Below, piece after piece: positions 1-31,829 of a stretch of DNA of 32,000 nucleotides. This DNA comes from an uncultured Candidatus Saccharimonas sp. GTDB lineage: Bacteria > Patescibacteriota > Saccharimonadia > Saccharimonadales > Saccharimonadaceae. Made by a program: the position numbers and the translations under genes. The DNA lies in the NCBI GenBank assembly GCA_963528875.1, contig CAURWT010000002.1:30001-62000 (forward strand). Direction: 5' to 3'. The notes under the pieces were generated by a model, which was not told the DNA's origin, did no database searches, and saw nothing but the letters and a program-made list of their open reading frames with translations. Position 1 is the stretch's first letter. Every line of letters starts with the position of its first letter.

Positions 1-1602
1 TGCAGATTGAATGGCTGCTTCCGTTCGCGTATCAACAGAACTGGTTGCTTCATCAAGAATCAGCATTGGAGAATCTGCCAAAATAGCCCGCGCAATTGTG
101 AGAAGCTGTTTTTCACCAGCTGAGATATTATCAATATCTTCAGAAATTACCGTATCATAACCTTTTGGTAAGGTTCGAATAAAGTGGTCGGCGTGAGCGG
201 CTTTTGCGGCTTCAATAATTTCTTCACGAGTGGCATTAGGTTTTCCATAAGCCAAGTTTTCAGCAATTGTACCATTAAAAAGCCATGTATCTTGAAGAAC
301 CATTCCAAAAAGGGAGCGAACATCATGCCGCGACATTTTTGAAGTATCAATTCCGTCGATTGTGATTTTTCCGCTATCAATATCATAGAATCGCATCAAA
401 AGATTCACAAGCGTAGTTTTTCCAGCTCCAGTTGGGCCAACAATTGCCACATTTGAACGCGGCGCAATTTTTGTACTGAAATTCGTAATAATTGGCTTAT
501 TTTTTGAATACGAAAAATTAACTTTTGAAAACTCTACAGATCCTTTAATTTCTTTTGGCAAAGTTTTTGAAATTTCAACAAAAGTCTCTTCTTCAGCATC
601 AAGAAAGCCAAAAATTCGCTCACAAGCTGCAACCGTTGTCTGAACACTTGTCATTGAGTTTGCGATATTCGAAATTGGTTGCGTAAATCGGCTCATATAT
701 TGCATAAAAGCAGTAATCTCACCAATTGTCATCTGACCATTTAATGCACGAACGCCACCAATCACCACAACGGTTAAAGTTGAAAGATTATTGATGAAAC
801 CCATAATTGGGTAGAGAAGTCCACCAAAAAACTGAGATTTCCAAGATGAAATATACATTTTGTTATTGATTTTTTCGAAATTTTCAACCGATGATTTTTC
901 GCCATTATAAACCTTAATAACTTCGTGTGAAGAAAGCATCTCATCGGTATGAGCAGTTAAACTCGATGTAAATTTTTGTAAATCCGTAAAATAGACTTGA
1001 CTAAACTTCGAAATAATCATAATAATTCCAACCGAAATTATTCCAGTTGCAAGAGCAATTAGGCTCATTTGCCAGCTAATCGAAATCATCATAACAGTCA
1101 CACCAACAATTGTAATTATTGAATAAGAAAGCTGATTTAAGCTCTCGCTCAAACTGTTGCTGAGTGTCTCGATGTCGTTCGTAATAATTGAAACCGTATC
1201 ACCAGTTTTGTGCTTATCAAAATATGAAAGAGGTAGTCGCGCGATTTTTTTTGAAGCTTCGTCACGTAATTTAAAAACAATTTCTTGAACCATTTGACCC
1301 ATAATCCAGTTTTGCGCATAACCAAAAACTCCTGATCCAACATAGATAGCAATCAAAATAAAGCCAAGTTCGGTAATTTTCGAAAAATCAGGATTAAATC
1401 GAACTGCGCCAGATTGAATTTCAAAATTTTTAGTAATTAAATTAATCATCTCACCCACAATTTGTGGCCCAACAATCGCTGAAACCGAGCTCAAAATCAC
1501 CATAATCGCAAAAAATACAATCAGGAATTTAAACGGTGCAAAATATAGCAAGAGTCGCCAAATTGTTTTTAGCGAAAGTTTGTTTTTTTGATTTTTCGCC
1601 AT
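1..1602 (-). CDS. ABC transporter ATP-binding/permease subunit (type I exporter, MdlB/MsbA-like); C-terminus cut by window edge
   Basis: Absent from the ORF track because it runs off the window. My translation from ATG (1602-1600) stays open to position 1 (534 codons): MAKNQKNKLSLKTIWRLLLYFAPFKF..., TM region, then Walker A GPTGAGKTT, signature ISAGEKQ, Walker B LILDEATS. Its start overlaps the upstream stop (TAATG). Confidence 0.85.
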   Translation of the reverse strand, partial: MAKNQKNKLSLKTIWRLLLYFAPFKFLIVFFAIMVILSSVSAIVGPQIVGEMINLITKNFEIQSGAVRFNPDFSKITELGFILIAIYVGSGVFGYAQNWIMGQMVQEIVFKLRDEASKKIARLPLSYFDKHKTGDTVSIITNDIETLSNSLSESLNQLSYSIITIVGVTVMMISISWQMSLIALATGIISVGIIMIISKFSQVYFTDLQKFTSSLTAHTDEMLSSHEVIKVYNGEKSSVENFEKINNKMYISSWKSQFFGGLLYPIMGFINNLSTLTVVVIGGVRALNGQMTIGEITAFMQYMSRFTQPISNIANSMTSVQTTVAACERIFGFLDAEEETFVEISKTLPKEIKGSVEFSKVNFSYSKNKPIITNFSTKIAPRSNVAIVGPTGAGKTTLVNLLMRFYDIDSGKITIDGIDTSKMSRHDVRSLFGMVLQDTWLFNGTIAENLAYGKPNATREEIIEAAKAAHADHFIRTLPKGYDTVISEDIDNISAGEKQLLTIARAILADSPMLILDEATSSVDTRTEAAIQSA

Positions 1603-3473
1603 TATTTTTCTCCTTTCTTAGATTTTTTCGAAATTACCTTTTTTAAGCTTTTCTTGGCTATCTTTTTCGAAACCGAAACTGCTTTTTTAGTATTTTTTTG
1701 AGTTTTCGAAATAGTTTTTTGCTTTTCAAAATCCTTAATTTGCATTTCAATTTCTTCATCAGAAAGCTGCGAAGATGCTATTTCGCGGTAAATTTCATTA
1801 TTTTTAAGAAGTTCACCATGAATACCAATTCCAACAATCTTTCCACCGTCTAAAACAATAATTTTATCGGCTTGCATAATTGAAGTTACTCGTTGAGCGA
1901 CAATAAACTTGGTTTGCGATTTAGTTTTTATAGCAAGTTCGGCACGAAGCTTAGCGTCGGTTTTATAATCAAGCGCAGAAAAGCTATCATCGAAAATTAA
2001 AATTGGAGCTTTTGAGGCGATTGCCCGAGCAATTGAAAGTCGCTGTTTTTGACCACCAGAGAAATTTTTGCCACCTTGCGAAACTTTCTCGTTTAAATCT
2101 TCAGGCAATTTCTGCACAAAATCCCAAGCTTGAGCGATTTTTAGAGCTTCAATAATTTCTTCATCACTTAGGTTTTTCGAAGAACCATAATTAATATTTT
2201 CACGGATATTCCCAGAAAAAAGGTTTGCTTTTTGTGGAACATAGCCAATCAAATCGTGAAGTTCGCTTTGCTTTAAGTCGCGAATATCCACTCCGCCTAG
2301 TTTAATTTCGCCTTTCGAAACATCATAAAATCGTGGAATTAATTTTGCAATAGTAGATTTTCCTGAACCAGTTCCACCAATTACAGCAATAGTTTCACCT
2401 TGCTTTACTGAAAAATTGATATTTTCAAGAACGGCTTCTTCAGAATCTGGATAGGCAAAACTAACATTTTCGAAAGTTAAATTAAAAGTTTTTGGCAATT
2501 TTTGCGTTTTAGTTTTATCTTTAACTGAAATTTCTTCATCAAGAACTTCGCTCAAGCGCTTGATTGCAACATTCATCCGTGGAATTGACATAAAAATCAT
2601 CGAAAGCATCACGAAAGCGAAAGTAACTTGAGCAAGATATTGAGTAAGGGAAGTTACATCACCAATTGAAATTTCACCAGATTTTACAAAATATGAACCA
2701 ATCCAAGCAATTGCTACAAGCCCAAGCCCTGAAACCATCGTCATATATGGCGAAATTAAGCCAAAAATCCTTTCGAAAAAGATATTCATTTTGAGCATTT
2801 CATTATTGATTTCGTCAAATTTTTCTTCTTCGACTTTTTCTTTTCTATAAGCTCGAATTACACGCAAACCAGTAATTGTTTGGCGAGTTTGCATATTTAA
2901 TTTATCTAGTTTCGTTTGAAAAATCTTTAATTTTGGAACGGCAAAAATACCAATAACCGTAGTCAAAGCAATGATAGAAAAAATCGTCACAACCATAATC
3001 CAGCTCATTGAACTAGAAATAGCTAAAGTGTTAATAATTGCACCAACACCAACAATTGGGGCATAAATTCCCATTCGCATATTCATTGTGAAAGTTTGTT
3101 GAAATTGCCGTACATCATTCGTAATTCGTGTTGTAAGACTCGAAACCGAGAATTTACCAAACTCGTTCATCGAAAAGTTTTCAATTTTCTCGAAAGTTGC
3201 ATGGCGAATATCTCGCACCATCGCCCCAGCTGAACGGCTCGCGAAGAAAACTCCCGCCAGCATTAAAGCGCCACTCAAAAGAGAAAGCCCAATCATATGA
3301 AAGCCGTTTGAATAAATAGCTTCCATATTTTTCATGGATACTCCTTCGGTAATAATTTTTGTGGTATATTGTGGCAAATCAAGATTAATTTTTGCCGAAA
3401 GAACCGTAAAAATAAGCATAAAAGCTAGACTTAGCCAACATTTTTTAGCAAATTTAAAAATAAATTTTAGCAT
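1602..3473 (-). CDS. ABC transporter ATP-binding/permease subunit, probable heterodimer partner of the downstream gene; Lys-rich C-terminal tail
   Basis: 623-aa ORF with N-terminal TM domain, Walker A GGTGSGKST, signature FSGGQKQRLSIARA, Walker B ILIFDDSFSALD. C-terminus is KKAVSVSKKIAKKSLKKVISKKSKKGEK. RBS AAAGGAA lies upstream of the ATG. Confidence 0.9.
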   Translation of the reverse strand: MLKFIFKFAKKCWLSLAFMLIFTVLSAKINLDLPQYTTKIITEGVSMKNMEAIYSNGFHMIGLSLLSGALMLAGVFFASRSAGAMVRDIRHATFEKIENFSMNEFGKFSVSSLTTRITNDVRQFQQTFTMNMRMGIYAPIVGVGAIINTLAISSSMSWIMVVTIFSIIALTTVIGIFAVPKLKIFQTKLDKLNMQTRQTITGLRVIRAYRKEKVEEEKFDEINNEMLKMNIFFERIFGLISPYMTMVSGLGLVAIAWIGSYFVKSGEISIGDVTSLTQYLAQVTFAFVMLSMIFMSIPRMNVAIKRLSEVLDEEISVKDKTKTQKLPKTFNLTFENVSFAYPDSEEAVLENINFSVKQGETIAVIGGTGSGKSTIAKLIPRFYDVSKGEIKLGGVDIRDLKQSELHDLIGYVPQKANLFSGNIRENINYGSSKNLSDEEIIEALKIAQAWDFVQKLPEDLNEKVSQGGKNFSGGQKQRLSIARAIASKAPILIFDDSFSALDYKTDAKLRAELAIKTKSQTKFIVAQRVTSIMQADKIIVLDGGKIVGIGIHGELLKNNEIYREIASSQLSDEEIEMQIKDFEKQKTISKTQKNTKKAVSVSKKIAKKSLKKVISKKSKKGEK

Positions 3474-3539
3474 AATTCCTTTCGTTTTTTATAGTTTATA
3501 GAGTTTAATAGGTTCTAATATTTTAACATAATTTTTCGA

Positions 3540-3565
3540 AAATTAAAAGAGCCGCGAATTGCGGC
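3540..3565 (-). terminator. Intrinsic terminator after the small zinc-finger ORF
   Basis: GCCGC-gaatt-GCGGC hairpin (3551-3565) followed on the minus strand by TCTTTTAATTTT. Confidence 0.6.
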
Positions 3566-3582
3566 TTAACAAAAAAGGAAAT

Positions 3583-3723
3583 TCATTCTTTCACTTTGCC
3601 AGTTCGATTGCAGACATCGCAAGGGAAAGTTCCAGAACCTACAAGCCCTGGCTGTTTATACCACCCAGTCCCATCGCAGTTTTTGCATTCTTTTTCCTCT
3701 ACATAAGGTTTTGGAAATACCAC
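3583..3723 (-). CDS. 46-aa DnaJ-type zinc-finger mini-protein (two CxxCxGxG-like knuckles)
   Basis: Below the 60-aa track cutoff. GTG start sits 8 nt after AAAGGAG. Translation: MVFPKPYVEEKECKNCDGTGWYKQPGLVGSGTFPCDVCNRTGKVKE, stop TGA. A terminator hairpin follows. Confidence 0.6.
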   Translation of the reverse strand: MVFPKPYVEEKECKNCDGTGWYKQPGLVGSGTFPCDVCNRTGKVKE

Positions 3724-3949
3724 AGAAATCACTCCTTTTAGAAAGTTTCAAAGCTTATAGTTGTTTCCGCAACCTAATTTAAGCTTCGAAAAAATTATAC
3801 TATATTTTTTTATTTTAGTCAAGCGTGCTATTATTTCGAAAAATATATTGACTTTAGTTTTTATATAAGATAATATTTATAATCGTGGCATAAACAATTC
3901 AGTAACAATTAAATTAGGTATAAACCCTGCGAAACTTAAGAGAAATATT

Positions 3950-9815: not shown

Positions 9816-9880
9816 ATAAAAATACATAAGCTGCTTGGAATTTTCGAAAAGATGTGGTAAAATTGTACGGAAAGGGAAAA

Positions 9881-10549
9881 ATGGATAGAACGAGAAGTGC
9901 ATACAGACGACTTGGTCGAATACACAAAATTTATCACGGAGGAAGGATTTCGAAAGATCGTCTTGTTGGTTTAATTGATGGCGCCACCGCGATTATTATT
10001 ACGCTTATGGTGCTTGAAATCCAATTGCCAAAATCAGTTAGAGATTTAGCTCAGCTGGAAAGTTTTGGATTTGCAATTTTGATTTACTTTGCAAGTTTTG
10101 TGATCGTTGGAATCCAGTGGAATCGTCATCATCACACTTTAGATAGAGTTGAAAAGGTTACGAATAGCTTTATCTGGAAAAACATGATTTATGTTTTCTT
10201 TTTGTCGCTTATTCCACTATTTATGCGCTGGGTGCTCTCTTCGCCAACGGAGGTTTTACCTGCTTTCTGTTATGCAATGGTTTACCTTTTTACAGATTTA
10301 AGCATGCGCTGGATTACTGCGAGTGCCTTAGGCGAAAATACAGGATTCTTTCACGGCGAAAATCGTAAAGTTCAAAGAAATTACCATTTAATTCGCACGG
10401 GAATGATGGTTTTGTGGATTGCAATTATTGCGTTGATATCGATTTTTCTGCCGCAGGTTGAAATTTTCTTTTTGATTATTTTACCAGTGGCAATTTCACT
10501 ATTTACAGTTTTTGAAGATGAAAAGGAGGAACTAGAAAATGGTAAATAA
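9881..10549 (+). CDS. TMEM175/DUF1211-family putative potassium channel
   Basis: TM1 signature RLVGLIDGATAIIITLMVLEI (compare RxxxFSDGvfAIaiTLLvLEl), then FVIVGIQWNRHHH and SLIPLF. About six predicted TM helices. Start taken at ATG 9881 after GGAAAGGGA, not track GTG 9854. Confidence 0.7.
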   Translation: MDRTRSAYRRLGRIHKIYHGGRISKDRLVGLIDGATAIIITLMVLEIQLPKSVRDLAQLESFGFAILIYFASFVIVGIQWNRHHHTLDRVEKVTNSFIWKNMIYVFFLSLIPLFMRWVLSSPTEVLPAFCYAMVYLFTDLSMRWITASALGENTGFFHGENRKVQRNYHLIRTGMMVLWIAIIALISIFLPQVEIFFLIILPVAISLFTVFEDEKEELENGK

Positions 10550-11474
10550 CATGATTGGTGGAATGCTTCTAATGGTAGTCTTTCTAATGATTTTAGGAAT
10601 TGCACAGATCGCATTTTTTGTCTGGGCTATTGTTGAAATTATTCTTTTCAATAAAAAAGTTAAAGAGCAAACTTTAAAAATTGGTGACGTTAAACGAGCT
10701 TCAATGGCACTACCGCTCGGCTTAAATATACTAGGATTAATTTTATTCTTCGTAATAGTTAAGCCAGCTATTAAAAATGACCCTATTGCAAATAAAAAAG
10801 CAAATCTTTTCTGTTGGTTGTCGTATATAATTTTTACCATCTTATCCGTTACAATTTACGGCTTAACAACTATAAATGCATTAAATACAATAAAAAATGT
10901 AGCTAATGAGACTACACAGCATAATACAACAGGCTTGGTGGAAGATGAACTGTTTAATAAGGATAAAATTAAAGAGCGAACCAGAAAAGCTAAAAATGCA
11001 GGTAAGTTCATATCTGAGGAAGGTGCTTTTGCAATCAAAGCGAAAGGATGTGATAATTTTACAAAACAAAATACTGGTGATAATTCAGTTGGCTATGTTT
11101 GCGCATCCTCAGACTCCACAAATAATGCAATAAACGCCTACATCATTGGTTATACAGACACAGATGAAAATTATGAAGACACTCAAAAACTTAGCAAGGA
11201 GGAATTAATCCACTCTGCGATCAATGGTGTCGGCGGTAATTTTTCAAGTTATGTTTCAGAAGAAGATTTCAAAGTAATCGATTTCAAAGGAGTTCGGGCA
11301 GTCGAAGGAAATATCTCACACAACAGTCAATTTATAAAAATATTAGCCCTACCTACTAAAAAAGATAAGTCCGGGAAGACTCGAGCATTCTTTATTACGA
11401 TGGTTTCAAATAATGGCGGAGATATTCTTGATAATAATTTTGCAAATTTCTCCGATTCTTTCGAAAGATTGTAA
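10539..11474 (+). CDS. Hypothetical membrane protein (about 3 N-terminal TM helices plus a soluble C-terminal domain)
   Basis: 311-aa ORF overlapping the previous stop by 11 nt. Hydrophobic N-terminus. No recognisable domain. Confidence 0.6.
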   Translation: MVNNMIGGMLLMVVFLMILGIAQIAFFVWAIVEIILFNKKVKEQTLKIGDVKRASMALPLGLNILGLILFFVIVKPAIKNDPIANKKANLFCWLSYIIFTILSVTIYGLTTINALNTIKNVANETTQHNTTGLVEDELFNKDKIKERTRKAKNAGKFISEEGAFAIKAKGCDNFTKQNTGDNSVGYVCASSDSTNNAINAYIIGYTDTDENYEDTQKLSKEELIHSAINGVGGNFSSYVSEEDFKVIDFKGVRAVEGNISHNSQFIKILALPTKKDKSGKTRAFFITMVSNNGGDILDNNFANFSDSFERL

Positions 11475-15196: not shown

Positions 15197-15274
15197 TTAT
15201 TCATTAGACAACAGCAGTTTATTTTTATATCTTTTTATTTTTCATAAATGAGGACTGCATATTTATAAACTATT

Positions 15275-15298
15275 GAGCGCTTATTAGCACTCTTTTTT
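15275..15298 (+). terminator. Probable intrinsic terminator
   Basis: GAGCGC-ttatta-GCACTC (one mismatch) followed by TTTTTT. Confidence 0.5.
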
Positions 15299-15325
15299 GC
15301 ATAAAAAAATAGGGTGTGTTATAAT
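15297..15325 (+). promoter_or_regulatory. Sigma70-type promoter, leaderless or near-leaderless (tig)
   Basis: TTGCAT (15297-15302), 17 bp, TGtTATAAT (-10 at 15320-15325), 9 nt, ATG 15335. Confidence 0.55.
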
Positions 15326-15334
15326 TATATAGAT

Positions 15335-16615
15335 ATGAAGATAAAGTTAAAGAATATTTCAGATGTAAAAGTTGAGCTTACAATTTCTCTTGGAGCTGAG
15401 GAATTAAAAGCCGCTGAGCAAGTTGCGCTAACAAAGCTCGCTAAAGAAGTTAAAATTGAAGGCTTTCGAAAAGGAAAAGCACCCCTCGAAATGGTTGCTG
15501 CGCAAGTTGATCCAAATTTGCTTAATCAAGAAACGCTTGAAAACGCGCTTTCAAAATCTGTCGCTGAAGCATTTCTAAAAGAAAAAGTTCAAGCAATTAA
15601 TCGACCAGAAGTTGATGTTAAAAAATTTATTCCTGGAACCGAGCTAGAATTTACCGCAACTACCGAAATCATGCCAAAAGTTGAACTTGGCGACTATAAA
15701 AAATTAGGCGTAAAAAAAGAAGCTGTAAAAGTTTCGAAAAAAGAAGTTAAAGAAACAATCGATCGAATTTTAAAGAATTTTGCCGAAAAGAAAAAAGTTG
15801 AGCGTGAGGCAAAAAATGGTGATGAAGTCATCATCGACTTTTTAGGCAAAAAAGATGGCGTAGCCTTTGATGGTGGAAAAGCTGAAAAATTTCCTCTTGA
15901 ACTTGGCTCAAAATCTTTCATTCCTGGGTTTGAAGAAGGTTTGATTGGTAGAAAAGCTGGCGATGAACTTTCACTCGATTTAGAATTTCCAAAAGATTAC
16001 CACGCAAAAGACTTGGCTGGTGCAAAAGTTGTTTTTGAAGTAAAAATTCACGAAGTTCGAGAAAATATTGAGCCAGAAATCAACGAAGAATTTCTTTCAA
16101 AATTAGGTGATTTCAAAACTAAAGAAGAATTCGAAAAACAGATTGAAGAAGATTTGAAAACTCAAAAACAAGCTGAAGCAGATGAAAAATTTAAAGACGA
16201 ACTTGTTAAAAAATTAGCAGAAGTTTCGAAAGTTCCCGTGCCAGAAATTTTGCTTGAAGATCAAAAGCGCAGCATTGAAATGGATATGCAACAAAATTTG
16301 ATGTATTCTGGGCTTTCACTTGAAGACTATCTTGAACGAATGGGTAAAACTCGTGAAGAATGGCTCGAAAAAGATGTTAAAGAAGCAGCTGAAATGCGCG
16401 TAAAATCTGGATTGGCTTTAGCAGAACTTTCGAAAGTTCAAAAAGTTAAGTCAGACACTAAAGAGCTTGATGCCCGAATTGCACAACTTAAAGAACAATA
16501 CGGAAACAGCAAAGAGGTTCAAAAACAGCTTTCATCAGATGACGTTCGCCGAAACTTAGCAAACCAAATTTTAACCGAAAAAACAATTGATTTATTAGTA
16601 AAATTTAATTCATAG
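15335..16615 (+). CDS. tig: Trigger factor
   Basis: Ribosome-binding signature GFRKGKAP, FKBP-type PPIase middle domain (IDFLGKKDGVAFDGG), Lys/Glu-rich C-terminal arm. Start at ATG 15335, not track GTG 15314. Confidence 0.92.
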   Translation: MKIKLKNISDVKVELTISLGAEELKAAEQVALTKLAKEVKIEGFRKGKAPLEMVAAQVDPNLLNQETLENALSKSVAEAFLKEKVQAINRPEVDVKKFIPGTELEFTATTEIMPKVELGDYKKLGVKKEAVKVSKKEVKETIDRILKNFAEKKKVEREAKNGDEVIIDFLGKKDGVAFDGGKAEKFPLELGSKSFIPGFEEGLIGRKAGDELSLDLEFPKDYHAKDLAGAKVVFEVKIHEVRENIEPEINEEFLSKLGDFKTKEEFEKQIEEDLKTQKQAEADEKFKDELVKKLAEVSKVPVPEILLEDQKRSIEMDMQQNLMYSGLSLEDYLERMGKTREEWLEKDVKEAAEMRVKSGLALAELSKVQKVKSDTKELDARIAQLKEQYGNSKEVQKQLSSDDVRRNLANQILTEKTIDLLVKFNS

Positions 16616-16634
16616 TTTTAAAAATTTTATAAAA

Positions 16635-16659
16635 ACAGGCTCGAAAGGGCTTGTTTTTG
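16635..16659 (+). terminator. Intrinsic terminator after tig
   Basis: ACAGGCTC-gaaa-GGGCTTGT followed by TTTTTG. Confidence 0.65.
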
Positions 16660-16710
16660 TTTATACTTTATTTTATAATAATTATAGTTAGCACATTTGG
16701 AGGTGGTTTT

Positions 16711-17235: not shown

Positions 17236-17241
17236 AATTTT

Positions 17242-17265
17242 AGCTCGCATTGCGAGCTTTTTTTC
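17242..17265 (+). terminator. Intrinsic terminator
   Basis: AGCTCGCA-t-TGCGAGCT palindrome followed by TTTTTTT. Confidence 0.8.
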
Positions 17266-17333
17266 GTTTTCTGAATATTGTTTTTTTATTAAACTTATGC
17301 TTTAATTAATATAAAATTACGAGAAAGGAATTT

Positions 17334-17585
17334 ATGAAATTTTTCGAAAAAAGAGATTTATCAATTTTACATATTATTTTAACTATTATTCTTCTTATTG
17401 GGCTGGTTGTAAATAGTATCGTTCTTGGGATTTTTTATAGTGATTATCTTAAAAATTCTGATGGACAGCAAAAAATTGAAAAAAATTACCAAGATCGAAT
17501 TGAATCACTCGAGAGAAAGCTCGACCTCAAATATTCACCAAACAAAAACGGAGAATATTCACATAAATCACAAAGCGAACTCTAA
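17334..17585 (+). CDS. Small membrane-anchored hypothetical protein
   Basis: 83 aa, one N-terminal TM helix (ILHIILTIILLIGLVVNSIVLGIF) and a charged tail. RBS AAAGGA. Confidence 0.55.
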   Translation: MKFFEKRDLSILHIILTIILLIGLVVNSIVLGIFYSDYLKNSDGQQKIEKNYQDRIESLERKLDLKYSPNKNGEYSHKSQSEL

Positions 17586-17601
17586 ACAAGGTTCGCTTTT
17601 T
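17574..17601 (+). terminator. Intrinsic terminator overlapping the end of the 17334 gene
   Basis: AGCGAAC-10 nt-GTTCGCT followed by TTTT. Confidence 0.6.
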
Positions 17602-17602
17602 A

Positions 17603-17611
17603 TGATAAAAT
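17603..17611 (+). promoter_or_regulatory. Extended -10 element, leaderless configuration (helicase-nuclease)
   Basis: TGaTAAAAT, then 6 nt (aggaga) to ATG 17618. The AGGAGA is too close to the ATG to act as an SD. Confidence 0.45.
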
Positions 17612-17617
17612 AGGAGA

Positions 17618-20600
17618 ATGAACGACTTTCAAAAGATTTTCGAAAAAAATTACAAAATGTTAAACGCAGAGCAGAAAGAAGCAGTTGACACAATTGATGG
17701 GCCAGTTTTGGTGATTGCAGGGCCGGGGACAGGAAAAACCCAATTGCTTTCAACGCGAATTGCTAATATTTTGCAAAAAACTGACACAGCACCAGAGAAT
17801 ATCCTTGCAATGACCTTTACTGAAGCTGGAGCCTCGAATATGCGCGAGCGACTTTCGCGTTTTATTGGTACGGATTCTTTTAAAGTTGGAATTTTCACTT
17901 ATCACGGTTTCGCAAATGAAATTATTCAAAATTATCGTGAATATTTTACAGATAAAAATCTTAACGAGGCTGCCGATGAATTAATCACGAAAGAAATTAT
18001 AACAAAAATATCAAACGAATTGCCGAGTTCTTCAAAACTCAAAAAAATCCCTATTTCGAACATCGCCTCCACGATAAAAGAAATGAAAAATGCTTATATT
18101 TCGCCAGATGATTTGCGAAAAGTTGCGAAGGCAAATATTTCTGAGCAAGAAATTTTTAACGAGAGCATTAAAGGATTGCGCGTTAACGGGCGAACTTTTG
18201 CGCAGGTTCAGCCGTTTTATTCAGCAATTCGCGATAATTTAGAAAATTCAATCTCAAAAGATTTAAACGATACAAAGTTTAAAAGTAATCTGTATTTTTA
18301 TTTCGAAAAATTGGATGAAGCTTATCTTGAGGCAGAAGAAACTGGAAAATCAAAACCGTTAACAGATTGGAAGAATACTTTTCTTAATTTAAAAGATTTC
18401 GAAGATAATTTTCAAATCAGCGACACTTATGCAAATAAAAAACTACTTGAATTTGCTGATTTTTATGAAAAATTCAATAATGAAATGAAAAATCGTGGAC
18501 TTTATGATTTTAATGATATGATTCTGGAAGTTATCGAAACACTTGAAAACAACGATGATTTTCGGTTTACACTTCAAGAAAAATATCAGTATTTACTATT
18601 AGACGAATACCAAGACACTAATGATTCTCAGGCGAAAATTATTGAACTGCTCACAAATAATCCTGTTATGGAAGGTAAGCCAAATGTCTTGGCGGTGGGC
18701 GATGATGACCAAGCGATCATGGCTTTTCAAGGCGCAAGCAAGTCGAACATGATCGATTTTTACAATCGTTTTGGCGAAAACACAAAAGTCATCAACTTAA
18801 CTAAAAATTACCGCTCACACGGCGATATTTTAACTGCTTCAAAAAATGTTGCAAATACGATTTCAGGGCGATTAACTAAAAACTTGCCAATTAAAATTGA
18901 GAAAGATATTTCAGCGGAAGGAAACTTTATTAACCGAGAAATTCAGCTTGAGCGAACAAATTTTGAAAGTCAAATCGCAGAATTTTCTTGGGTCGCAGAA
19001 AAAATTTCGAATTTAATTCAAAACGGAGTTGCACCAAAAGAAATTGCCATAATTGCACCAAAGCACAAGATTCTGCAAGCTTTTGTGCCGTATTTAAAAA
19101 ACCAAAATGTACCAATTTATTATGAGAAACGCGAAAATATTCTAAAAAATGAAATAATTTCGCAGCTAATTAAGATTTCGAAGCTAATTTTGGCAATTCG
19201 CGATAAAGACGAAGATAAAATGGCAAATCTTTTCCCTGAAGTTTTGAGTTTTGATTTTTGGCAAATTCCAGCAGTTGAAGTTTGGAAAATGAGCTGGGCG
19301 GCCAAAGATAATCGTGATTTTTGGATTGAAGCTATATTGAAAAGCGAAGTTGAACAAATTCGAAATTTGGGTGAAATTTTAGTTACGCTAGCCGAATTTT
19401 CACACGAGAAGACTTTCGAAGAGCTTTTTGATTATATTTTGGGCTCAAGGGAAATTCGCGAAGGCTTAAAATCACCAATTCGAGATTTTATTTCGCAAAA
19501 ATCTGACGAAGAATTTTATGATACAATTTTAAACTTAACTATTTTGCGAGACAAACTGCGAGAATTTTCGAACGAAGAAAATAATAAACTTGATATTTTA
19601 ATAAATTATGTTGAATTATGTGAAGAATTTGAAATTCAAATTTTGAGCACAAATCCGCATAATACAAGCGAAAATGCAGTTCAAGTTATGACACCCTTTG
19701 TGGCAAAAGGCTTAGAATTTGAATATACTTTTCTAATTTCACTCAATCAAGATAGCTGGAATTCTGCGAGAAAAGGCGGTGGTGGCGAAAATATCACGAT
19801 GCCCGCAAACCTTAAATTTACAAATATCGAAGATGAGGGTGAAGACACGCGCAAGCGCTTGATGTTTGTGGCAATGACGCGTGCCAAAACTCAACTTTAT
19901 CTCACAAACCACAACAGTGATTTAACTGGAAAAACCAAAAAAACACTGTCATTTTTAGATGAGCGAGAAGAAGACGGAGTTTTAAAATCAAAAATTCTAC
20001 CTGAAAAATGGCAAGAAGTTTCAAGAATCCAAAGAGAATCACTTGAAGCTGATGAAGTTGAAACAAACTGGCACGAATTTTATACCATCAAAAATGAAAA
20101 AATGCGAGAGCTTCTGAAGCCAAGAGTTAAAAACTATAAATTAAGCCCAACAGATTTAAACTCCTATACAAGCCTCCAATATAAAGGTCCTCAAACCTTT
20201 TTCGAAAACAAAATTTTATGTTTTCCCGGAGCTTATGGTCCAGCTCTAACGCTTGGAAATATCGTTCATGAAGGCTTTAATTATATTCAAGATGAAATTA
20301 ATTCTGGCAATACACCAAATATTGACAACATTAAAAAATATGCTATTGAAAGATTTTCGAAATACCCACTCTCAGAAAAAGACAAAGAAGAAATTTTAGA
20401 AAGATTTAATCAAATTTTTGAAAACTTTTTCGAAAATAATTTAGGCGAGTTTAAACCTGGAAATATAGCTGAGAAAAACTTTAGCGGTGTTGGTATAACG
20501 GTTGGAGATGCGGTTCTAACGGGAAAAATTGACCTAATTCGAATAGAACACGAAAATAAAAAAATCACAGTCGTTGATTATAAGACCGGTTCAATTCCTT

Positions 20601-20953
20601 TTAATACTAAAACTAATAAATTTGATACAAATTCAACAAAAATTCACGAGTATACACAACAGCTATATTTTTATAAAATTTTGATCGAAAATGCACCAGA
20701 ATTTTCGGGTTACACGGTTGAAAAGGGAATTCTGGAGTTCATTGAGCCAGATAAACGTACTGAAAAAACTTATAATTTTGAAGTCATATTTAAACCTGAA
20801 GAAGAGGAACGGCTAAAAACTCTAATTCAAGCTGTTTGGGCAAAAATTAAATCATTTAATTTTGAGCTAGATGAAGAAAAATATTCGAAAGATATAAAAG
20901 GAACGCGAGCTTTTGAAGCAGATTTAATCGCGGATTTTAAGGATTCAAAATAA
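17618..20953 (+). CDS. UvrD/PcrA-family SF1 helicase fused to a C-terminal RecB-like PD-(D/E)XK nuclease (AddA-like)
   Basis: Motif I AGPGTGKTQ, Ia MTFTEAGA, II LLDEYQDTN, III VGDDDQAIMAFQGA, IV KNYRS, V FVAKGLEFE, VI VAMTRAKTQLYL. Nuclease: GNIVHEGF, GKIDLIRIE...VVDYKTG, QQLYFYKIL. Confidence 0.88.
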   Translation: MNDFQKIFEKNYKMLNAEQKEAVDTIDGPVLVIAGPGTGKTQLLSTRIANILQKTDTAPENILAMTFTEAGASNMRERLSRFIGTDSFKVGIFTYHGFANEIIQNYREYFTDKNLNEAADELITKEIITKISNELPSSSKLKKIPISNIASTIKEMKNAYISPDDLRKVAKANISEQEIFNESIKGLRVNGRTFAQVQPFYSAIRDNLENSISKDLNDTKFKSNLYFYFEKLDEAYLEAEETGKSKPLTDWKNTFLNLKDFEDNFQISDTYANKKLLEFADFYEKFNNEMKNRGLYDFNDMILEVIETLENNDDFRFTLQEKYQYLLLDEYQDTNDSQAKIIELLTNNPVMEGKPNVLAVGDDDQAIMAFQGASKSNMIDFYNRFGENTKVINLTKNYRSHGDILTASKNVANTISGRLTKNLPIKIEKDISAEGNFINREIQLERTNFESQIAEFSWVAEKISNLIQNGVAPKEIAIIAPKHKILQAFVPYLKNQNVPIYYEKRENILKNEIISQLIKISKLILAIRDKDEDKMANLFPEVLSFDFWQIPAVEVWKMSWAAKDNRDFWIEAILKSEVEQIRNLGEILVTLAEFSHEKTFEELFDYILGSREIREGLKSPIRDFISQKSDEEFYDTILNLTILRDKLREFSNEENNKLDILINYVELCEEFEIQILSTNPHNTSENAVQVMTPFVAKGLEFEYTFLISLNQDSWNSARKGGGGENITMPANLKFTNIEDEGEDTRKRLMFVAMTRAKTQLYLTNHNSDLTGKTKKTLSFLDEREEDGVLKSKILPEKWQEVSRIQRESLEADEVETNWHEFYTIKNEKMRELLKPRVKNYKLSPTDLNSYTSLQYKGPQTFFENKILCFPGAYGPALTLGNIVHEGFNYIQDEINSGNTPNIDNIKKYAIERFSKYPLSEKDKEEILERFNQIFENFFENNLGEFKPGNIAEKNFSGVGITVGDAVLTGKIDLIRIEHENKKITVVDYKTGSIPFNTKTNKFDTNSTKIHEYTQQLYFYKILIENAPEFSGYTVEKGILEFIEPDKRTEKTYNFEVIFKPEEEERLKTLIQAVWAKIKSFNFELDEEKYSKDIKGTRAFEADLIADFKDSK

Positions 20954-24885: not shown

Positions 24886-26181
24886 ATGGATAAATTTAAT
24901 AATTGCAAAAATGAGCTTTTAATAAGATTCATGCTCGGCACAATGATTTTTCTGTCTGAGATTGCAATTATTTTTATTACTCATCCGCTAAATTTTAATG
25001 ATTTTATAGTGATATTTTTTACACTCTTTGCTTTAAACTTAGCTTTTATAATTTTTGGAGTTCGCCAAAAACAAACTCGCCAAAAAATGTTTGAAGCCCG
25101 CAAAAATGCCGAAGATTCGCGAAATAGAATCTTAACGATCATCAACAGCTTAACTGATGCCGTACTAAGTATTGATTCGCGCGGAAAAATTGAATTATAC
25201 AATTCTGCAGCACTTGAAATTTTAGGCGAAAATGGTGAAATTTTAAATAAGAACCTTTCGAAAATTTGTAAGCTTGCAAAAATCAACACACAAAAATTCG
25301 AAATTCAAGAAATTCTTAAAGCAGGAAAGCCATATTTCTCAACCAACGATTTAATCCTTCAAAAAGAAGATGAAACACTACGAATTGAAATTGAAATTAT
25401 TAAAATTAAAGAATCTTTTTCGAAAAAATCAAGGTCTAATTTAAAAAAATTCGTGGTAATTTTACGCGATATCACCAAGCAAAAAACGCTTGATGAAGAG
25501 CGTGATGAATTTATTAGTGTTGTGAGCCACGAACTTCGCACGCCAGTGGCAATTTTAGAGGGGTCTTTGAGTAATTTAAAACTGCTAATTGATAAAAAAG
25601 CACCTTTTAAGATGCTTGAAAAATCTGCTAAAACCGCCTACAGCCAAAATAATTTTCTCGCAACAATGGTGAATGATCTCTCGATACTTTCACGTACAGA
25701 AAGAGGAATCGGTGAAGGAACGGAAAAAATTAACCCAAAAGAACTTGCCGAGACACTTTTCAAAAAATATCACAAAACAGCTTTCGAAAGAGGTCTAAGC
25801 CTCAATTTAAATATTGACAATAATCTTAATCATGTTAAAGCTAGTAAACTTTATCTGGAAGAATTATTACAAAATTTTATCACAAACGCCTTAAAATATA
25901 CGCGCGAAGGTTCTATTGAAATTTGTTTTAAAAATTCACAAAAAGGTGTAATTTTTGAGATTAAAGATACCGGGATAGGAATTAGCTCAAGCGATCAAAA
26001 ACGGATTTTCGAAAAGTTTTACAGGAGTGAAGATTGGCGAACGCGAGAAACTGGCGGCACAGGCTTAGGGCTTTATATTTCTTCAAAATTGGCAGCAAAA
26101 ATTGGTACAAAAATTCAACTCGAAAGCAAATTAAACCACGGCTCGAAATTCTTTTTTGAACTCCCAAAAATTAAAGAATAG
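24886..26181 (+). CDS. Sensor histidine kinase (2 TM, PAS-like, HisKA, HATPase_c); no adjacent response regulator
   Basis: H-box SHELRTPV, N-box NFITNALKYT, G-boxes DTGIGI and GTGLGLYIS. Start at 24886 on promoter geometry (track 24880). Confidence 0.85.
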   Translation: MDKFNNCKNELLIRFMLGTMIFLSEIAIIFITHPLNFNDFIVIFFTLFALNLAFIIFGVRQKQTRQKMFEARKNAEDSRNRILTIINSLTDAVLSIDSRGKIELYNSAALEILGENGEILNKNLSKICKLAKINTQKFEIQEILKAGKPYFSTNDLILQKEDETLRIEIEIIKIKESFSKKSRSNLKKFVVILRDITKQKTLDEERDEFISVVSHELRTPVAILEGSLSNLKLLIDKKAPFKMLEKSAKTAYSQNNFLATMVNDLSILSRTERGIGEGTEKINPKELAETLFKKYHKTAFERGLSLNLNIDNNLNHVKASKLYLEELLQNFITNALKYTREGSIEICFKNSQKGVIFEIKDTGIGISSSDQKRIFEKFYRSEDWRTRETGGTGLGLYISSKLAAKIGTKIQLESKLNHGSKFFFELPKIKE

Positions 26182-27214: not shown

Positions 27215-27237
27215 TTTTAAATTTCGAAAGCTAAAAA

Positions 27238-27303: not shown

Positions 27304-27813
27304 TTACTTTTTGGAAACAACGTTTTTATTAATCCTAAGAGCTTTATCTATCATATACTCAGAATTTGATAAATTATGATTAATAAGTTCAAGTTCTTGC
27401 GTTCGAGAATATTTGTGAAATTCAGGTGTCGCTAGAATCATCCCATCTTCAACGCAAATACAAACCTGGTAAAGATTGAAACCGAATGACGAAATTAGAT
27501 CTGTAATATTATGATACTTTCGTTCAAATCCTTGTTTAAAAATCGCATCCGTATCTTTGATTCTCCAAATATCAAAAAGTTGTCCGCGATAGTTAATTCT
27601 AAAACCTTTGTGATTATTATTTTCGACAAAAGTTCCGCCCAGATCTTCAAGCCGTTTACGAATTTTTGAAACAGCTACATCTGTTTTTACCACAATATCA
27701 ATATCGTGATTTTGAACAGAATCAATGCAAAGAGCTTTATAGACTGCAAAACTCCCCACAATATAAACCCGCCCAAAATCTTTTAGAACTTCAAGTACTT
27801 CACGATTTTCCAT
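27304..27813 (-). CDS. Small pol-beta-superfamily nucleotidyltransferase (169 aa)
   Basis: VYIVGSFAVYKALCIDSVQNHDIDIVV fits the G[SG]-x(9-13)-DxD NTase motif and resembles the head motif of class II CCA-adding / Lnu-ANT(2'')-type enzymes (from memory). RBS GGAGG precedes ATG 27813; the track N-terminal extension to 27885 covers the promoter. Confidence 0.6.
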   Translation of the reverse strand: MENREVLEVLKDFGRVYIVGSFAVYKALCIDSVQNHDIDIVVKTDVAVSKIRKRLEDLGGTFVENNNHKGFRINYRGQLFDIWRIKDTDAIFKQGFERKYHNITDLISSFGFNLYQVCICVEDGMILATPEFHKYSRTQELELINHNLSNSEYMIDKALRINKNVVSKK

Positions 27814-27841
27814 TTTTAAACCTCCAAAGCGTGATTTTAAA

Positions 27842-27870
27842 ATTATAGCATAGTTAAAAATTAAAGACAA
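27842..27870 (-). promoter_or_regulatory. Sigma70-type promoter of the nucleotidyltransferase gene
   Basis: Minus strand: TTGTCT (27870-27865), 17 bp, TGcTATAAT (-10 at 27847-27842). Confidence 0.55.
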
Positions 27871-28055
27871 GAAAAAACATAGCAAAGCTGAGGGCTATAG
27901 AGGTTTATATTAAACTAATGCCATTTCTTACAAGCAATGTGCTTTAACAATATTTTTCACGCTAATCACATTTTCATATTCGTAATTTTCCGTCGAACAA
28001 TCTTAACAAAATTTTACACAATGAGTTAATAGTCCTAAAATAAACAAATTGAAGC

Positions 28056-28595: not shown

Positions 28596-28598
28596 AAA

Positions 28599-28627: not shown

Positions 28628-28634
28628 TTAACAG

Positions 28635-29906: not shown

Positions 29907-30117
29907 GCCAAATTCAAAAAAAGGGAATCTCATTCAAAAATCACAAGATGAAAACGGTGAGTTTTTTGAGATTTTTATTCGTGAGCCAGCAATTGAAGGT
30001 AAAGCAAATCTGGCGGTAATCAAATTATTAAGCGAAGAATTTGGCGTTTCGAAAAGCAAAGTTTCCTTAAAAACCGGTGTAAAATCACGATTTAAGATTT
30101 TCGAAATTGAAAAATAA
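29884..30117 (+). CDS. DUF167 (YggU-like) protein
   Basis: IKPNSKKGNL...EPAIEGKANLAVIKLLSEEFGVSKSKVSLKTGVKSRFKIFEI. Overlaps the tgt 3' end. Start 29884 preferred over 29845 (uncertain). Confidence 0.7.
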   Translation: MKIRCKIKPNSKKGNLIQKSQDENGEFFEIFIREPAIEGKANLAVIKLLSEEFGVSKSKVSLKTGVKSRFKIFEIEK

Positions 30118-30245
30118 CAATTTTACTTCCATAAAAGCAATTCTATTTTAGTCATAATTAAATAGAAAAAGAAGACTATTCCTTCGATTTTTAGTTGGCA
30201 GGTTTAATCTATAACACAAATAACTATAATATTTTATATAATAAT

Positions 30246-30274
30246 TTTACAATCAGTCCATTTTATAGTATAAT
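30246..30274 (+). promoter_or_regulatory. Sigma70-type promoter, leaderless configuration (30281 ORF)
   Basis: TTTACA (30246-30251), 17 bp, TATAAT (30269-30274), 6 nt, ATG 30281. Confidence 0.55.
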
Positions 30275-30280
30275 TTAGTT

Positions 30281-30610
30281 ATGTTTAAAGAATTATCTCG
30301 ATTAATTAGAGATTACGCAGAAAATCAATCAACCGATTCAGTGAAGCGATATTATAACGACATCGCAGACGCTTTAGATGATGAAGAGTTTCTTCAGACT
30401 CTATCAAACACAGGAGTTTTAAATCAACTAGATTATCTTCTGGATAACTTCGACTACTATATATCCAATGCAGGCAATCACCAGAATGCATTAAATACAA
30501 TCTATACTAACTATGTTATATATAGATCAGAACCAAAGCAGGCTATCAGTAATTTTTTGGAAAAAATTAAAAATTTTGAAAAAAAATTAAAGAAAGTGAA
30601 GAAAGCTTAG
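30281..30610 (+). CDS. Hypothetical protein; probably the N-terminal part of a gene split at an A8 tract
   Basis: 109-aa ORF with no recognisable domain. Ends shortly after the A8 run at 30579-30586. Confidence 0.5.
   Translation: MFKELSRLIRDYAENQSTDSVKRYYNDIADALDDEEFLQTLSNTGVLNQLDYLLDNFDYYISNAGNHQNALNTIYTNYVIYRSEPKQAISNFLEKIKNFEKKLKKVKKA
30579..30586 (+). other. A8 homopolymer at the overlap of the two reading frames (candidate frameshift / slippage site)
   Basis: Frame of the 30652 ORF is open back to TGA 30577-30579. One extra A would fuse both ORFs. Confidence 0.6.
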
Positions 30611-30651
30611 AAATAATTAAAAAAGTCGCAGGTGATATATCTGGTGCTGAG

Positions 30652-31152
30652 ATGTTAGAAAAGTATGCTAGATTTTTTGATAAAGAAGCTAAAAAGCATA
30701 AAGAGGAATCGAGAAAGTGGCTAAAATGGTTAACTATATCCGTTATTATATTTACTGCTATTGTTGCATTACTTTTGTTTGTTCAAATTTCTAACTTCTC
30801 TATTATTAAAGACTGGATAGCTAATGATATAAAATGGTTAGCTAATCTAAACACCTTGATGCTTGTTATAAAAGGCTCAATAATTATAGCTTATGTTCAA
30901 ATTCCGCTATTTATTAGAAAAAATTACTTTGCAGAAAAACATTTAGAGCAGTCCTCAATCCATCGCAGAAATGTATTAAGAGCTCTGCACGCCGTCTATA
31001 AAACAATAAGCAATCCTGAAGAAAAGGATAAGATACTCACAGTCGGAGCAACTATTGCATTCTCAGAACCAGAAAGCGGATTTATTACTAGAAAAGAAGG
31101 TGCTGGCGGAGATGACAATATTGAAGCTATTTTAAAGGTAATCAGTAAATAA
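30652..31152 (+). CDS. Hypothetical membrane protein (two TM helices); probably the C-terminal part of the split gene
   Basis: 166-aa ORF. TM helices LTISVIIFTAIVALLLFV and LMLVIKGSIIIAYVQIPLFI. No SD or promoter upstream of its ATG. Confidence 0.5.
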   Translation: MLEKYARFFDKEAKKHKEESRKWLKWLTISVIIFTAIVALLLFVQISNFSIIKDWIANDIKWLANLNTLMLVIKGSIIIAYVQIPLFIRKNYFAEKHLEQSSIHRRNVLRALHAVYKTISNPEEKDKILTVGATIAFSEPESGFITRKEGAGGDDNIEAILKVISK

Positions 31153-31160
31153 AAGCAAAA

Positions 31161-31202
31161 AACGGCAGCGATGCCCGAACCAAAATCGGGTACATTACCG
31201 TT
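31161..31202. terminator. Long imperfect bidirectional hairpin between convergent ORFs
   Basis: AACGGCAGCGATGCCCGA-accaaaa-TCGGGTACATTACCGTT. A-run upstream and T-run downstream, so it is usable on both strands. Confidence 0.6.
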
Positions 31203-31221
31203 CTTTTATACTTTAATAGCG

Positions 31222-31335
31222 CTACAAAATAAAAAAATCAATATTATCTAATTGTTTTGCCGGTTTGAGTTTTAATTTCGAGTTCTTGATTTTTTCAAGC
31301 TCTTGTTCAAACTCGGTTTCGTTAGTATTTTGCAT
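31222..31335 (-). CDS. 37-aa hypothetical small protein
   Basis: Below the track cutoff. AAGGAG sits 6 nt before the ATG. MQNTNETEFEQELEKIKNSKLKLKPAKQLDNIDFFIL, stop TAG, followed by the bidirectional terminator. Confidence 0.45.
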   Translation of the reverse strand: MQNTNETEFEQELEKIKNSKLKLKPAKQLDNIDFFIL

Positions 31336-31346
31336 AATTTACTCCT

Positions 31347-31410
31347 TTTTAGTGAGCGGTTTGAACTGAAGTATGGTTGGGTGGATTCTAGCTCGAATCG
31401 CTCACTAAAA
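31347..31410. repeat. 12-bp perfect inverted repeat with 40-nt spacer, abutting the SD of the 37-aa ORF
   Basis: TTTTAGTGAGCG (31347-31358) and CGCTCACTAAAA (31399-31410). Inner stem GATTC-gagcta-GAATC on the minus strand. Confidence 0.7.
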
Positions 31411-31654
31411 GTTATAATTTTGAAGTTTCCTAGTCTAATTGCTTAAGCTCTAAATTATTGCTGATTAGCTCGCTTTCGAAAGGGAAGACTTCTATTAAAT
31501 AATGCCAGATTGTTAATAAACACACCTATTATCAGGTTTTTGTTAGACTGATGAAGAGGCTTAAAACCAAAGTCCCCTCAATTCGTATAACAAAAAAGAG
31601 TGCAGCATCGCCATAACACTACGCTCTTTTGGTCTTATCTTTTTCTATATAATT

Positions 31655-31698
31655 AAAAAGCCAAGACAAAGTGTTTACAATAAACATCTCATCTTGGC
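31655..31698 (-). terminator. Terminator hairpin immediately after tRNA-Gln
   Basis: Minus strand: GCCAAGA-25 nt (with inner GTTTA/TAAAC stem)-TCTTGGC followed by TTTTT. The 5' arm includes the tRNA GCCA end. Confidence 0.55.
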
Positions 31699-31769
31699 TG
31701 GGATGGAGGGATTCGAACCCCCGAATGGCGGGACCAGAACCCGCTGCCTTACCACTTGGCGACATCCCA
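31695..31769 (-). tRNA. tRNA-Gln, anticodon CUG, CCA encoded
   Basis: Minus-strand sequence TGGGATGTCGCCAAGTGGTAAGGCAGCGGGTTCTGGTCCCGCCATTCGGGGGTTCGAATCCCTCCATCCCAGCCA folds as a cloverleaf: 7-bp acceptor, anticodon loop TTCTGGT, T-loop TTCGAAT. It closely parallels E. coli tRNA-Gln. Confidence 0.93.
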
Positions 31770-31779
31770 ATACTTTTCA

Positions 31780-31808
31780 ATTATATCAAAAAAAATAATG
31801 CTTTTCAA
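31780..31808 (-). promoter_or_regulatory. Sigma70-type promoter of tRNA-Gln
   Basis: Minus strand: TTGAAA (31808-31803), 17 bp, TATAAT (31785-31780), about 10 nt to the tRNA 5' end. Confidence 0.6.
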
Positions 31809-31829
31809 GAGCTTTTCGAAAGCCTTTTA

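Follow-up and report, generated by a model that had tools for sequence, protein, structure and literature searches.

Why should TTCGAA, a hexamer of the kind cut by Type II restriction enzymes (BstBI/AsuII type), recur every few hundred bases in the chromosome of an ultrasmall Saccharibacterium, and what keeps it there? The question is raised by a 32-kb stretch of an uncultured Candidatus Saccharimonas sp. (contig CAURWT010000002.1, positions 30,001–62,000; the whole stretch is called the window below). Exact count of TTCGAA in the window: 109 copies, the first at 174 and the last at 31815–31820; an earlier note on this DNA had arrived by hand at 105–110 copies over 174–31820, with about ten expected from base composition, and both figures hold (10.9 computed). 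The octamer TTTCGAAA, in which 63 of the copies are embedded, is with high probability a real, lineage-specific highly iterated palindrome (HIP) of one Saccharibacteria clade, spread by substitution and retained.

Expected numbers for the window (G+C 35.0%), Markov orders 0–4: TTCGAA, 10.9 (composition), 27.7 (dinucleotides), 47.8, 62.0 and 97.7; TTTCGAAA, 1.2, 5.6, 9.3, 13.5 and 30.9. Dinucleotide-preserving shuffles (n = 100) gave a mean of 27.5 TTCGAA (sd 5.6, maximum 43), and 109 was reached in none of them. A codon-aware null was obtained by permuting synonymous codons within each gene, every protein and the codon usage of each gene being kept: TTCGAA, 32.6 ± 4.9 (maximum 47) vs 99 observed gene-wise in coding sequence; TTTCGAAA, 9.9 ± 2.8 vs 55. 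The excess of TTCGAA is 3.9-fold over dinucleotides and 3-fold over the codon-aware null; the tenfold enrichment claimed earlier stands against base composition only. The excess of TTTCGAAA is 52-fold (composition), 11-fold (dinucleotides) and 5.6-fold (codon-aware). The earlier note would have given up its claim at an observed/expected ratio near 1 under a third- or fourth-order model. Order 3 leaves 62.0 against 109; order 4 comes close to that value (1.12), which is no refutation because the 5-mer sub-words consist mostly of the motif itself (109 of 129 TTCGA and 109 of 152 TCGAA lie inside TTCGAA). The maximal-order Markov model was rejected as a null on this ground, being self-referential.

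The two half-sites are strongly coupled: independence of TTC and GAA would give 26 copies, and 109 were found. TTCGAA ranks fifth among all hexamers of the window and is 3.8 times as frequent as the next NNCGNN word (each of these has at most 29 copies). It is preceded by T in 73% and followed by A in 72% of cases; with 63 of 109 copies in the full octamer, the earlier statement that over half of them lie within longer palindromes is borne out, and the still longer TTTTCGAAAA was counted 16 times. TTTCGAAA is four times as frequent as the next TTTNNAAA word, TTTTAAAA (16 copies), despite the A+T-rich genome, and is the commonest palindromic octamer (runner-up, 16 copies). The true unit is the octamer TTTCGAAA rather than the hexamer; its density in this genome is about 2 per kb, in genes and spacers alike. 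Other short palindromes are below expectation in the window, as the earlier note had said of such words in general: GATC 47 vs 92, CATG 27 vs 88, ACGT 19 vs 63. Several longer ones are avoided too (ACATGT 0; ATGCAT 3 vs 12; TGATCA 2 vs 10). Positions of the motif in the window (here and below, no strand is assigned except where given):

174..31820: field of 109 dispersed TTCGAA, 63 of them as TTTCGAAA
TTTCGAAA starts, part 1: 873, 1378, 1626, 1665, 1704, 2313, 2468, 2771, 3534, 3834, 4074, 4145, 4392, 4488, 5071, 5743
TTTCGAAA starts, part 2: 6620, 6835, 7391, 8781, 8795, 8836, 9480, 9842, 9948, 11459, 11648, 12664, 12853, 14253, 14366, 14638
TTTCGAAA starts, part 3: 15015, 15464, 15732, 16224, 16428, 17342, 17638, 18301, 20200, 20355, 20428, 21540, 21604, 22264, 22643, 23003
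TTTCGAAA starts, part 4: 23243, 23967, 25256, 25418, 25782, 26007, 26343, 27222, 28652, 29334, 29867, 30047, 30099, 31474, 31814

Do the encoded proteins account for the motif? That it is a codon-pair or dipeptide artefact is suggested by the frequency of F-E and [ILFV]-S-K peptides. In the window (32 genes called) the density of TTCGAA is the same in coding (3.41 per kb) and non-coding DNA (3.39 per kb). The coding copies are found in all three codon phases (34/21/44, gene-wise) and on both strands. The ten non-coding positions listed in the earlier note are all intergenic, and nine of the ten carry the full octamer; the three phases it had read within tig (F-R-K, V-S-K and F-E) are each as described:

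3534..3541: intergenic TTTCGAAA inside TTTTCGAAAA, between an ABC transporter gene and hyp206
3785..3790: intergenic TTCGAA, the sole intergenic copy short of the full octamer (CTTCGAAA)
3834..3841: intergenic TTTCGAAA
8781..8843: three intergenic TTTCGAAA (8781, 8795, 8836), upstream of rpsL
9842..9849: intergenic TTTCGAAA, spacer between rpsG and a TMEM175-like gene
27222..27229: intergenic TTTCGAAA directly after nusG; alleles in the species, TTCGAA in 16 genomes and TTCAAA in 2
31474..31481: intergenic TTTCGAAA
31814..31821: intergenic TTTCGAAA
15464..15471, + strand: octamer in tig, TTT-CGA-AAA (F-R-K)
15732..15739, + strand: octamer in tig, GTT-TCG-AAA (V-S-K)
16130..16135, + strand: hexamer in tig, TTC-GAA (F-E)
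31712..31717, − strand: TTCGAA in the T-arm/T-loop of tRNA-Gln (31695–31769), the eleventh non-coding copy

The copy in tRNA-Gln is an ordinary tRNA feature and not part of the phenomenon. The intergenic copies are no terminator stems.

With proteins and codon usage fixed the 3- to 5.6-fold excess persists, and codon choice follows the motif. F-E is encoded by TTCGAA in 34 of 69 cases, TTC being the minority Phe codon (130/533 overall, about 18% outside a GA context); for Ser, TCG is chosen in 39 of the 56 TT-Ser-[KN] contexts and in 13% of cases elsewhere, which makes the peptide bias a consequence and not the cause. The codon artefact is excluded, as the earlier note had maintained. Its further claim, that the motif shapes the proteome, holds in part: F-E has an observed/expected ratio of 1.4–1.8 in the lineages enriched for the motif (below) vs 0.3–1.3 in relatives without it, and [ILFV]-S-K stands at 2–3.5 times expectation; F-R dipeptides showed no enrichment. 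The feedback on protein sequence is real, its effect modest. CGA is the top Arg codon of the window (141/428) despite 35% G+C.

Positions at which the word could be written by synonymous change are occupied by TTCGAA in 44% and by TTTCGAAA in 60% of cases; control words: 5–41% (the maximum for the A+T-only TTTAAA); octamer control TTTTAAAA: 29%. Occupancy is even across genes, every gene carrying the motif in proportion to its accessible sites. Long motif-free stretches (e.g., 9949–11460) are due to the absence of such sites; heterogeneity between genes as a sign of foreign genes was rejected, scarce accessible sites explaining the gaps. A hypothetical gene at 27304–27885 (− strand), without a Pfam match, has seven synonymously accessible TTCGAA sites, none of them occupied in the window strain; it is 87–92% identical in the related lineages L012 and L093, and its called length differs among strains (191 or 169 residues).

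No longer repeat families carrying the sites were found in the window beyond chance matches, and the flanks are not conserved beyond ±2 bases. In orthologous alignments of 41 sites the motif changes by substitution, with one partial one-base gap (in L012) and no full insertion or deletion. The motif thus spreads by point substitution and not within a mobile repeat, which is excluded. The spacing in the window is near random (mean gap 293, coefficient of variation, CV, 0.93). Three octamers exactly 39 bases apart (1627, 1666 and 1705) were noted at the 3' end of an ABC-transporter gene; they fall in its Lys-rich C-terminal tail, and chance is possible.

Retention was followed in 18 genomes of the species, the window and 17 assemblies differing by 0.8–6%. 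Seven closest genomes: 1 of 62 motif sites variable vs 14% of all hexamers; synonymous-capable sites polymorphic, 1/129 in the motif vs 396/6136 outside (p = 0.003). All 18 genomes, matched classes of synonymous transitions: motif CpG polymorphic, 10/33 vs 223/337 other CpGs (p = 9e-5) and 20/29 TCGA outside the motif; motif T/A positions, 2/51 vs 683/3368 (p = 0.002); flanking T of the octamer, 1/26. Synonymous polymorphism inside the motif is thus 2–5 times below that of matched sites (2.2-fold at the CpG, 5-fold at the T/A positions). Rare breaking alleles are present at 21% of motif sites vs 26% of other CpGs; alleles at a frequency of at least 30% are found at 3% of motif sites vs 20% (p = 0.016; rank test, p = 7e-6). 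Breaking variants therefore arise at a near-normal rate and fail to spread, that is, the octamer is retained by fixation bias, acting on all eight bases, and not by a low mutation rate. The variant alleles are mostly TTCAAA or TTTGAA, because CpG is generally mutable in this genome. The C of the motif is no deamination hot spot, which argues against unrepaired 5-methylcytosine (m5C) and fits N6-methyladenine (m6A). Motif-creating transitions at TTTGAA/TTCAAA (8/29) do not exceed comparable TG/CA-to-CpG changes (28%) and reach no higher frequency. Two further sites vary within the species:

27597..27602: private loss, TTCTAA in the window strain and TTCGAA in 17/17 other genomes of the species
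26142..26147: three-allele site, CTCGAA (window genome and one other), TTCAAA (5) and TTCGAA (11)

How far does the motif extend beyond the species? The window is identical to part of a 375-kb scaffold (ENA ERZ28636975 scaffold_8), the flanks of which extend the sequence to 49.5 kb; this stretch contains 155 TTCGAA and 88 octamers. Its relatives in a species-level genome collection are Candidatus Saccharibacteria/Saccharimonadales metagenome-assembled genomes. Two sets of loci were compared, those around DnaB in this collection and those that encode homologues, graded by identity, of the UvrD-nuclease protein (1111 residues). Lineages (identity of the UvrD-like protein to that of the window; G+C; TTCGAA found vs expected from dinucleotides):

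L093: 71%; 35.5%; 80 vs 26
L095: 55%; 47.6%; 112 vs 25
L096: 53%; 39.8%; 79 vs 22
L007: 52%; 43.8%; 88 vs 23
L097: 46%; 43%; 45 vs 22, weaker
L012 group: 68%; 37%; 12 vs 17, unenriched
L094: 64%; 42%; 0 vs 9.3
L098: 47%; 32%; 0 vs 3.3

The consensus (t)TTTCGAAA(a) is common to the window, L093, L095, L096 and L007 and, more weakly, L097; across the enriched lineages 251 octamers were counted in 135.5 kb vs 25.7 expected. The loci examined of more distant Saccharibacteria and of other phyla showed no TTCGAA enrichment. TCGA is avoided in L094 (11 vs 57 expected; ERZ28615205 scaffold_1875) and in L098 (11 vs 22; ERZ21615828 NODE_612), which suggests TaqI-type restriction pressure there. In the tree of the UvrD-like protein the L012 group stands beside the window and L093, and L094 beside L095, both being nested among enriched lineages; judged from this one protein tree, the simplest history would be an old gain in the clade, followed by at least two losses, one of them with TCGA avoidance. 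In L007 the copies are clustered, unlike those of the other enriched loci (CV 1.36; 40% of gaps below 50 bases); a secE homologue with six TTCGAA is an example.

In contexts with conserved amino acids a motif of the window is also a motif in 57% (L093), 60% (L007) and 6% (L012) of cases; for all hexamers the word is kept in 41%, 31% and 31%, respectively. The occupancy of about 55–60% whatever the divergence means that the enriched lineages share one equilibrium occupancy. A precursor of the motif was sought at orthologous positions of L012 and L007; this was dropped, 67–70% nucleotide identity being too diverged.

A context-dependent mutation bias, or a general TTCG/CGAA oligonucleotide signature, would produce such words with no fixation bias. 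Throughout the clade CG is over-represented (observed/expected 1.27–1.6) and TA under-represented, high-order Markov models absorb much of the excess, and 6–8 TTCGAA per kb are reached in L124 and L135, viral contigs of unrelated origin in which the TTCG/CGAA signature is strong. However, L012 has the same dinucleotide signature (CG 1.29) and no enrichment, the half-sites are coupled, and breaking variants that arise at a near-normal rate fail to spread. Pure mutation bias is unlikely, and we would assign it very little weight. The viral contigs came from a scan for groups of three octamers in a span of about 76 bases, which returned mostly local clusters in viral contigs and, among the matches listed for metagenome contigs, mainly short unrelated ones. 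L124 and L135 were rejected as carriers of the same phenomenon, since they belong to unrelated organisms with another dinucleotide signature: L124/L125 (IMGVR_UViG_3300044959_000237, 111 kb) and L135 have CG at 1.7–1.9 and TA at 0.3–0.4 of expectation, with stop codons scarce in all frames, and L124 also has 66 TCCGGA.

Is the word recognised by enzymes? A prophage in L097 has 6 TTCGAA vs 6.4 expected, the adjoining chromosome 39 vs 15.7; phage contigs related to the prophage of the clade have 4 vs 14.4. The TCGA avoidance in sister lineages, the TTCGAA-poor phage relatives and the unenriched prophage, taken together, show that TCGA/TTCGAA-recognising enzymes act in the clade. The prophage (17147–23465 of L097) lies beside RecR/DHH and encodes an integrase, a terminase, an SPP1-type portal and a Mu F-like protein; AACGTT, ATGCAT and TCATGA are all absent from the L097 locus and TTGCAA is found once vs 17 expected. 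An integrated element of some strains (rolling-circle Rep, REP_ORF2-G2P, and a serine recombinase) has the full TTCGAA density. The region downstream of tgt is variable (L138, L141 and L144, about 15200–18700; cf. window 30100–32000 and L090 11000–14000) and contains, depending on the strain, the Rep/recombinase element, a gene for an SNase-domain protein or one for DnaJ. The window and both flanks were searched for enzymes, hypothetical proteins being scanned against Pfam; DprA and RecR are encoded 14–17 kb downstream of the window, and YbaB in the same 49.5 kb. Of the competence machinery, DprA and RecR were thus seen in this stretch, and ComEC and pilins were not. MmeI-family (Type IIL) restriction-modification enzymes are encoded at different genomic positions in the enriched L095 (3867–6647) and L097 (2573–5338); no link of these enzymes to TTCGAA is shown.

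The closest analogue is HIP1 of cyanobacteria (GCGATCGC), and every sequence-level property of HIP1 that could be tested (PMC4390886, PMC5861425) was found here as well; the density, phases and occupancy support the comparison made in the earlier note. Both are 8-bp palindromes that nest 6-bp and 4-bp palindromes of the restriction/methylation type; both occur about once per 0.3–1 kb inside and outside coding sequence, spread by substitution with no insertion and are conserved at synonymous sites; in both the one-base deviants gather at the first and last positions, the phylogeny is patchy and includes lineages without the motif, and the host, judged here from Saccharibacteria in culture, is naturally transformable. 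The differences are as follows: the arms are A+T-rich here, with a CpG centre; the host belongs to the Saccharibacteria (candidate phyla radiation), with genomes below 1 Mb; the cognate methyltransferases DmtA and DmtC are known for HIP1, whereas none was found in the 49.5 kb; the excess is 11-fold (dinucleotides) or 52-fold (composition) here vs 15–300-fold for HIP1. For HIP1 a quasi-periodicity of 10–90 kb has been reported, and 50 kb is too short for comparison. As Type II targets, BstBI/AsuII-type TTCGAA and TaqI-type TCGA are avoided in L094 and L098 and in the contigs of related phages; the window shows the opposite sign, with 4- to 10-fold enrichment.

By a neutral ratchet of methylation-coupled repair (Elhai's HIP model or Vsr-type very-short-patch repair) near-cognates would be converted into a functionless palindrome, a TTCGAA methyltransferase skewing the correction of mismatches. 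The nesting of TCGA within TTCGAA within TTTCGAAA resembles that of GATC within CGATCG within GCGATCGC, and the observed/expected ratios of one-base deviants (2.83 at positions 1/8, 1.75 at 2/7, 0.91 at 3/6, 0.87 at 4/5) follow the outer-position pattern that Elhai reported for HIP1 (PMC4390886). The patchy phylogeny with a TCGA-avoiding sister, by which such enzymes circulate in the clade, and the unenriched L097 prophage fit this model too. On the other side, motif-creating transitions show no excess; TTTTGAAA, the product that T:G repair would drain, is undepleted (1.03, against 0.94 in relatives); protection at the outer T/A positions equals that at the CpG, which repair of a central mismatch cannot explain; neither a methyltransferase nor a Vsr gene was seen in the 49.5 kb; and the known TTCGAA methyltransferases make m6A (PMC5930826), not m5C. 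Vsr-type repair of a central T:G is insufficient by itself because of the protected outer positions, the undepleted TTTTGAAA and the m6A type of the known methylation. The ratchet as a whole is unlikely in our judgement, although it ranks first among the surviving rivals, ahead of a nucleoid-protein site and then a Chi-like signal. In Escherichia coli the methylated palindrome CCWGG is over-represented through biased very-short-patch repair by Dcm/Vsr; the effect is small there and the T:G-derived neighbours are depleted, in contrast to the undepleted neighbour TTTTGAAA and the protected outer positions found here.

A reader that binds the octamer for structural reasons, i.e., an abundant nucleoid-associated or chromosome-organising protein, was considered next to the ratchet; Xu et al. 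reportedly proposed a structural role for HIP1. A symmetric 8-bp site suits a dimer, the octamer is retained by fixation bias, every gene has it in proportion to accessible sites, and at three of six loci the spacing is slightly more even than random. Such sharp hexamer specificity (109 vs at most 29 for any other NNCGNN) is rare for proteins of this kind, though, and two nested lineages do without the motif and without a substitute; this role is doubtful, more so than the ratchet.

Short Chi sites can reach a comparable frequency, and the window encodes an AddA/RecB-type helicase-nuclease (17618–20953; UvrD-PD-(D/E)XK), conserved in the clade, from which a palindromic Chi-like signal might shield self DNA; the phage relatives lack the motif. 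Known Chi sites, in contrast, are asymmetric, strand-skewed and read as single-stranded DNA, while a palindrome has no orientation, and L012 retains the helicase-nuclease (68% identity) and not the motif. A Chi-like role is highly improbable.

Specificity this sharp and symmetric suggests that a dimeric protein would read the octamer in double-stranded DNA. Our best guess for this putative reader is a TTCGAA-specific methyltransferase and/or a factor of natural transformation or recombination; the motif would serve as a tag, frequent in self DNA and rare in foreign DNA, and would work in analogy to uptake sequences and to the role now proposed for HIP1, an enhancement of transformation that depends on methylation. 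Saccharibacteria are naturally competent in culture (PMC10633639), and HIP1, in the summary given in bioRxiv 10.64898/2026.06.24.733823, is reported to increase transformation, an effect dependent on methylation; a self-DNA tag is therefore favoured. The joint reading, a HIP-type tag of a Saccharibacteria clade together with machinery that marks or recognises conspecific DNA, has in our estimate an even chance of being right. The specific function, a self-DNA tag read by the methylation and/or transformation machinery, is put forward tentatively and may well prove wrong.

The uptake sequences of Neisseriaceae (DNA uptake sequence, DUS) and Pasteurellaceae (uptake signal sequence, USS) are alike in being short motifs at about 1–3 per kb in genes and spacers of competent bacteria, lineage-specific and lower in phage DNA, and they can build up through uptake bias and recombination. 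They differ in that they have 9–12 bases, are asymmetric and are often paired as terminators, while TTTCGAAA is an 8-bp palindrome; the receptor ComP is known for DUS, while an uptake role of TTTCGAAA is conjectural.

Several points weigh against the tag and its machinery. To our knowledge, known uptake sequences are not palindromic. The search of the 49.5 kb turned up no methyltransferase, restriction enzyme, Vsr gene or candidate receptor, and in the non-enriched lineages no replacement motif or 'dialect' was found. The tree was built by neighbour joining from a single protein, and the population tests comprise 33–77 motif positions in metagenome assemblies with population structure. The spacing in the 49.5 kb departs weakly from random towards evenness (CV 0.85, p = 0.02); even spacing is absent from L095 and L007 and slight at three of six loci. 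Regular spacing was dropped as a feature, being weak and inconsistent.

For Saccharibacteria, neither enrichment of TTCGAA/TTTCGAAA nor any highly iterated palindrome or uptake sequence was found described in the literature, and the motif is filed as one of the HIP kind, with a new sequence, in a new phylum. A further candidate for a HIP-like palindrome is ACGGCCGT, with 37 copies in 21 kb of an Ardenticatenaceae metagenome-assembled genome (Chloroflexota; L071, JACKBX010000009.1, 1–21311): 37 of 42 CGGCCG are flanked by A...T; TCGGCCGA, GCGGCCGC and CCGGCCGG, all 0; mean gap 526, dispersed. It hints that HIP-like motifs have a wider distribution than one would gather from the literature.

Some thirty years of study have left the function of HIP1, which is confined to one phylum, unsettled; an independent second palindrome offers another system for learning what such motifs do. 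The advantages of this one are the tiny genomes and the cultivated Saccharibacteria, which are naturally competent and have already been genetically manipulated. Since sister lineages have the motif, lack it or avoid its core, a comparison of gene presence and absence could name the reader protein. The motif skews the choice of codons and even the dipeptide composition, could mislead methods based on k-mer composition (binning, host-phage matching) and predicts which DNA transforms these organisms efficiently. It is an unlikely but specific proposal that TTTCGAAA, probably methylated at TTCGAA, would be a watermark of 'self' by which the obligate epibiont separates DNA of its own species, destined for recombination, from that of its host bacterium, a source of nucleotides, or of phages. 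If this were true, highly iterated palindromes would be a general, convergent device of naturally transformable bacteria, of which ACGGCCGT would be another instance.

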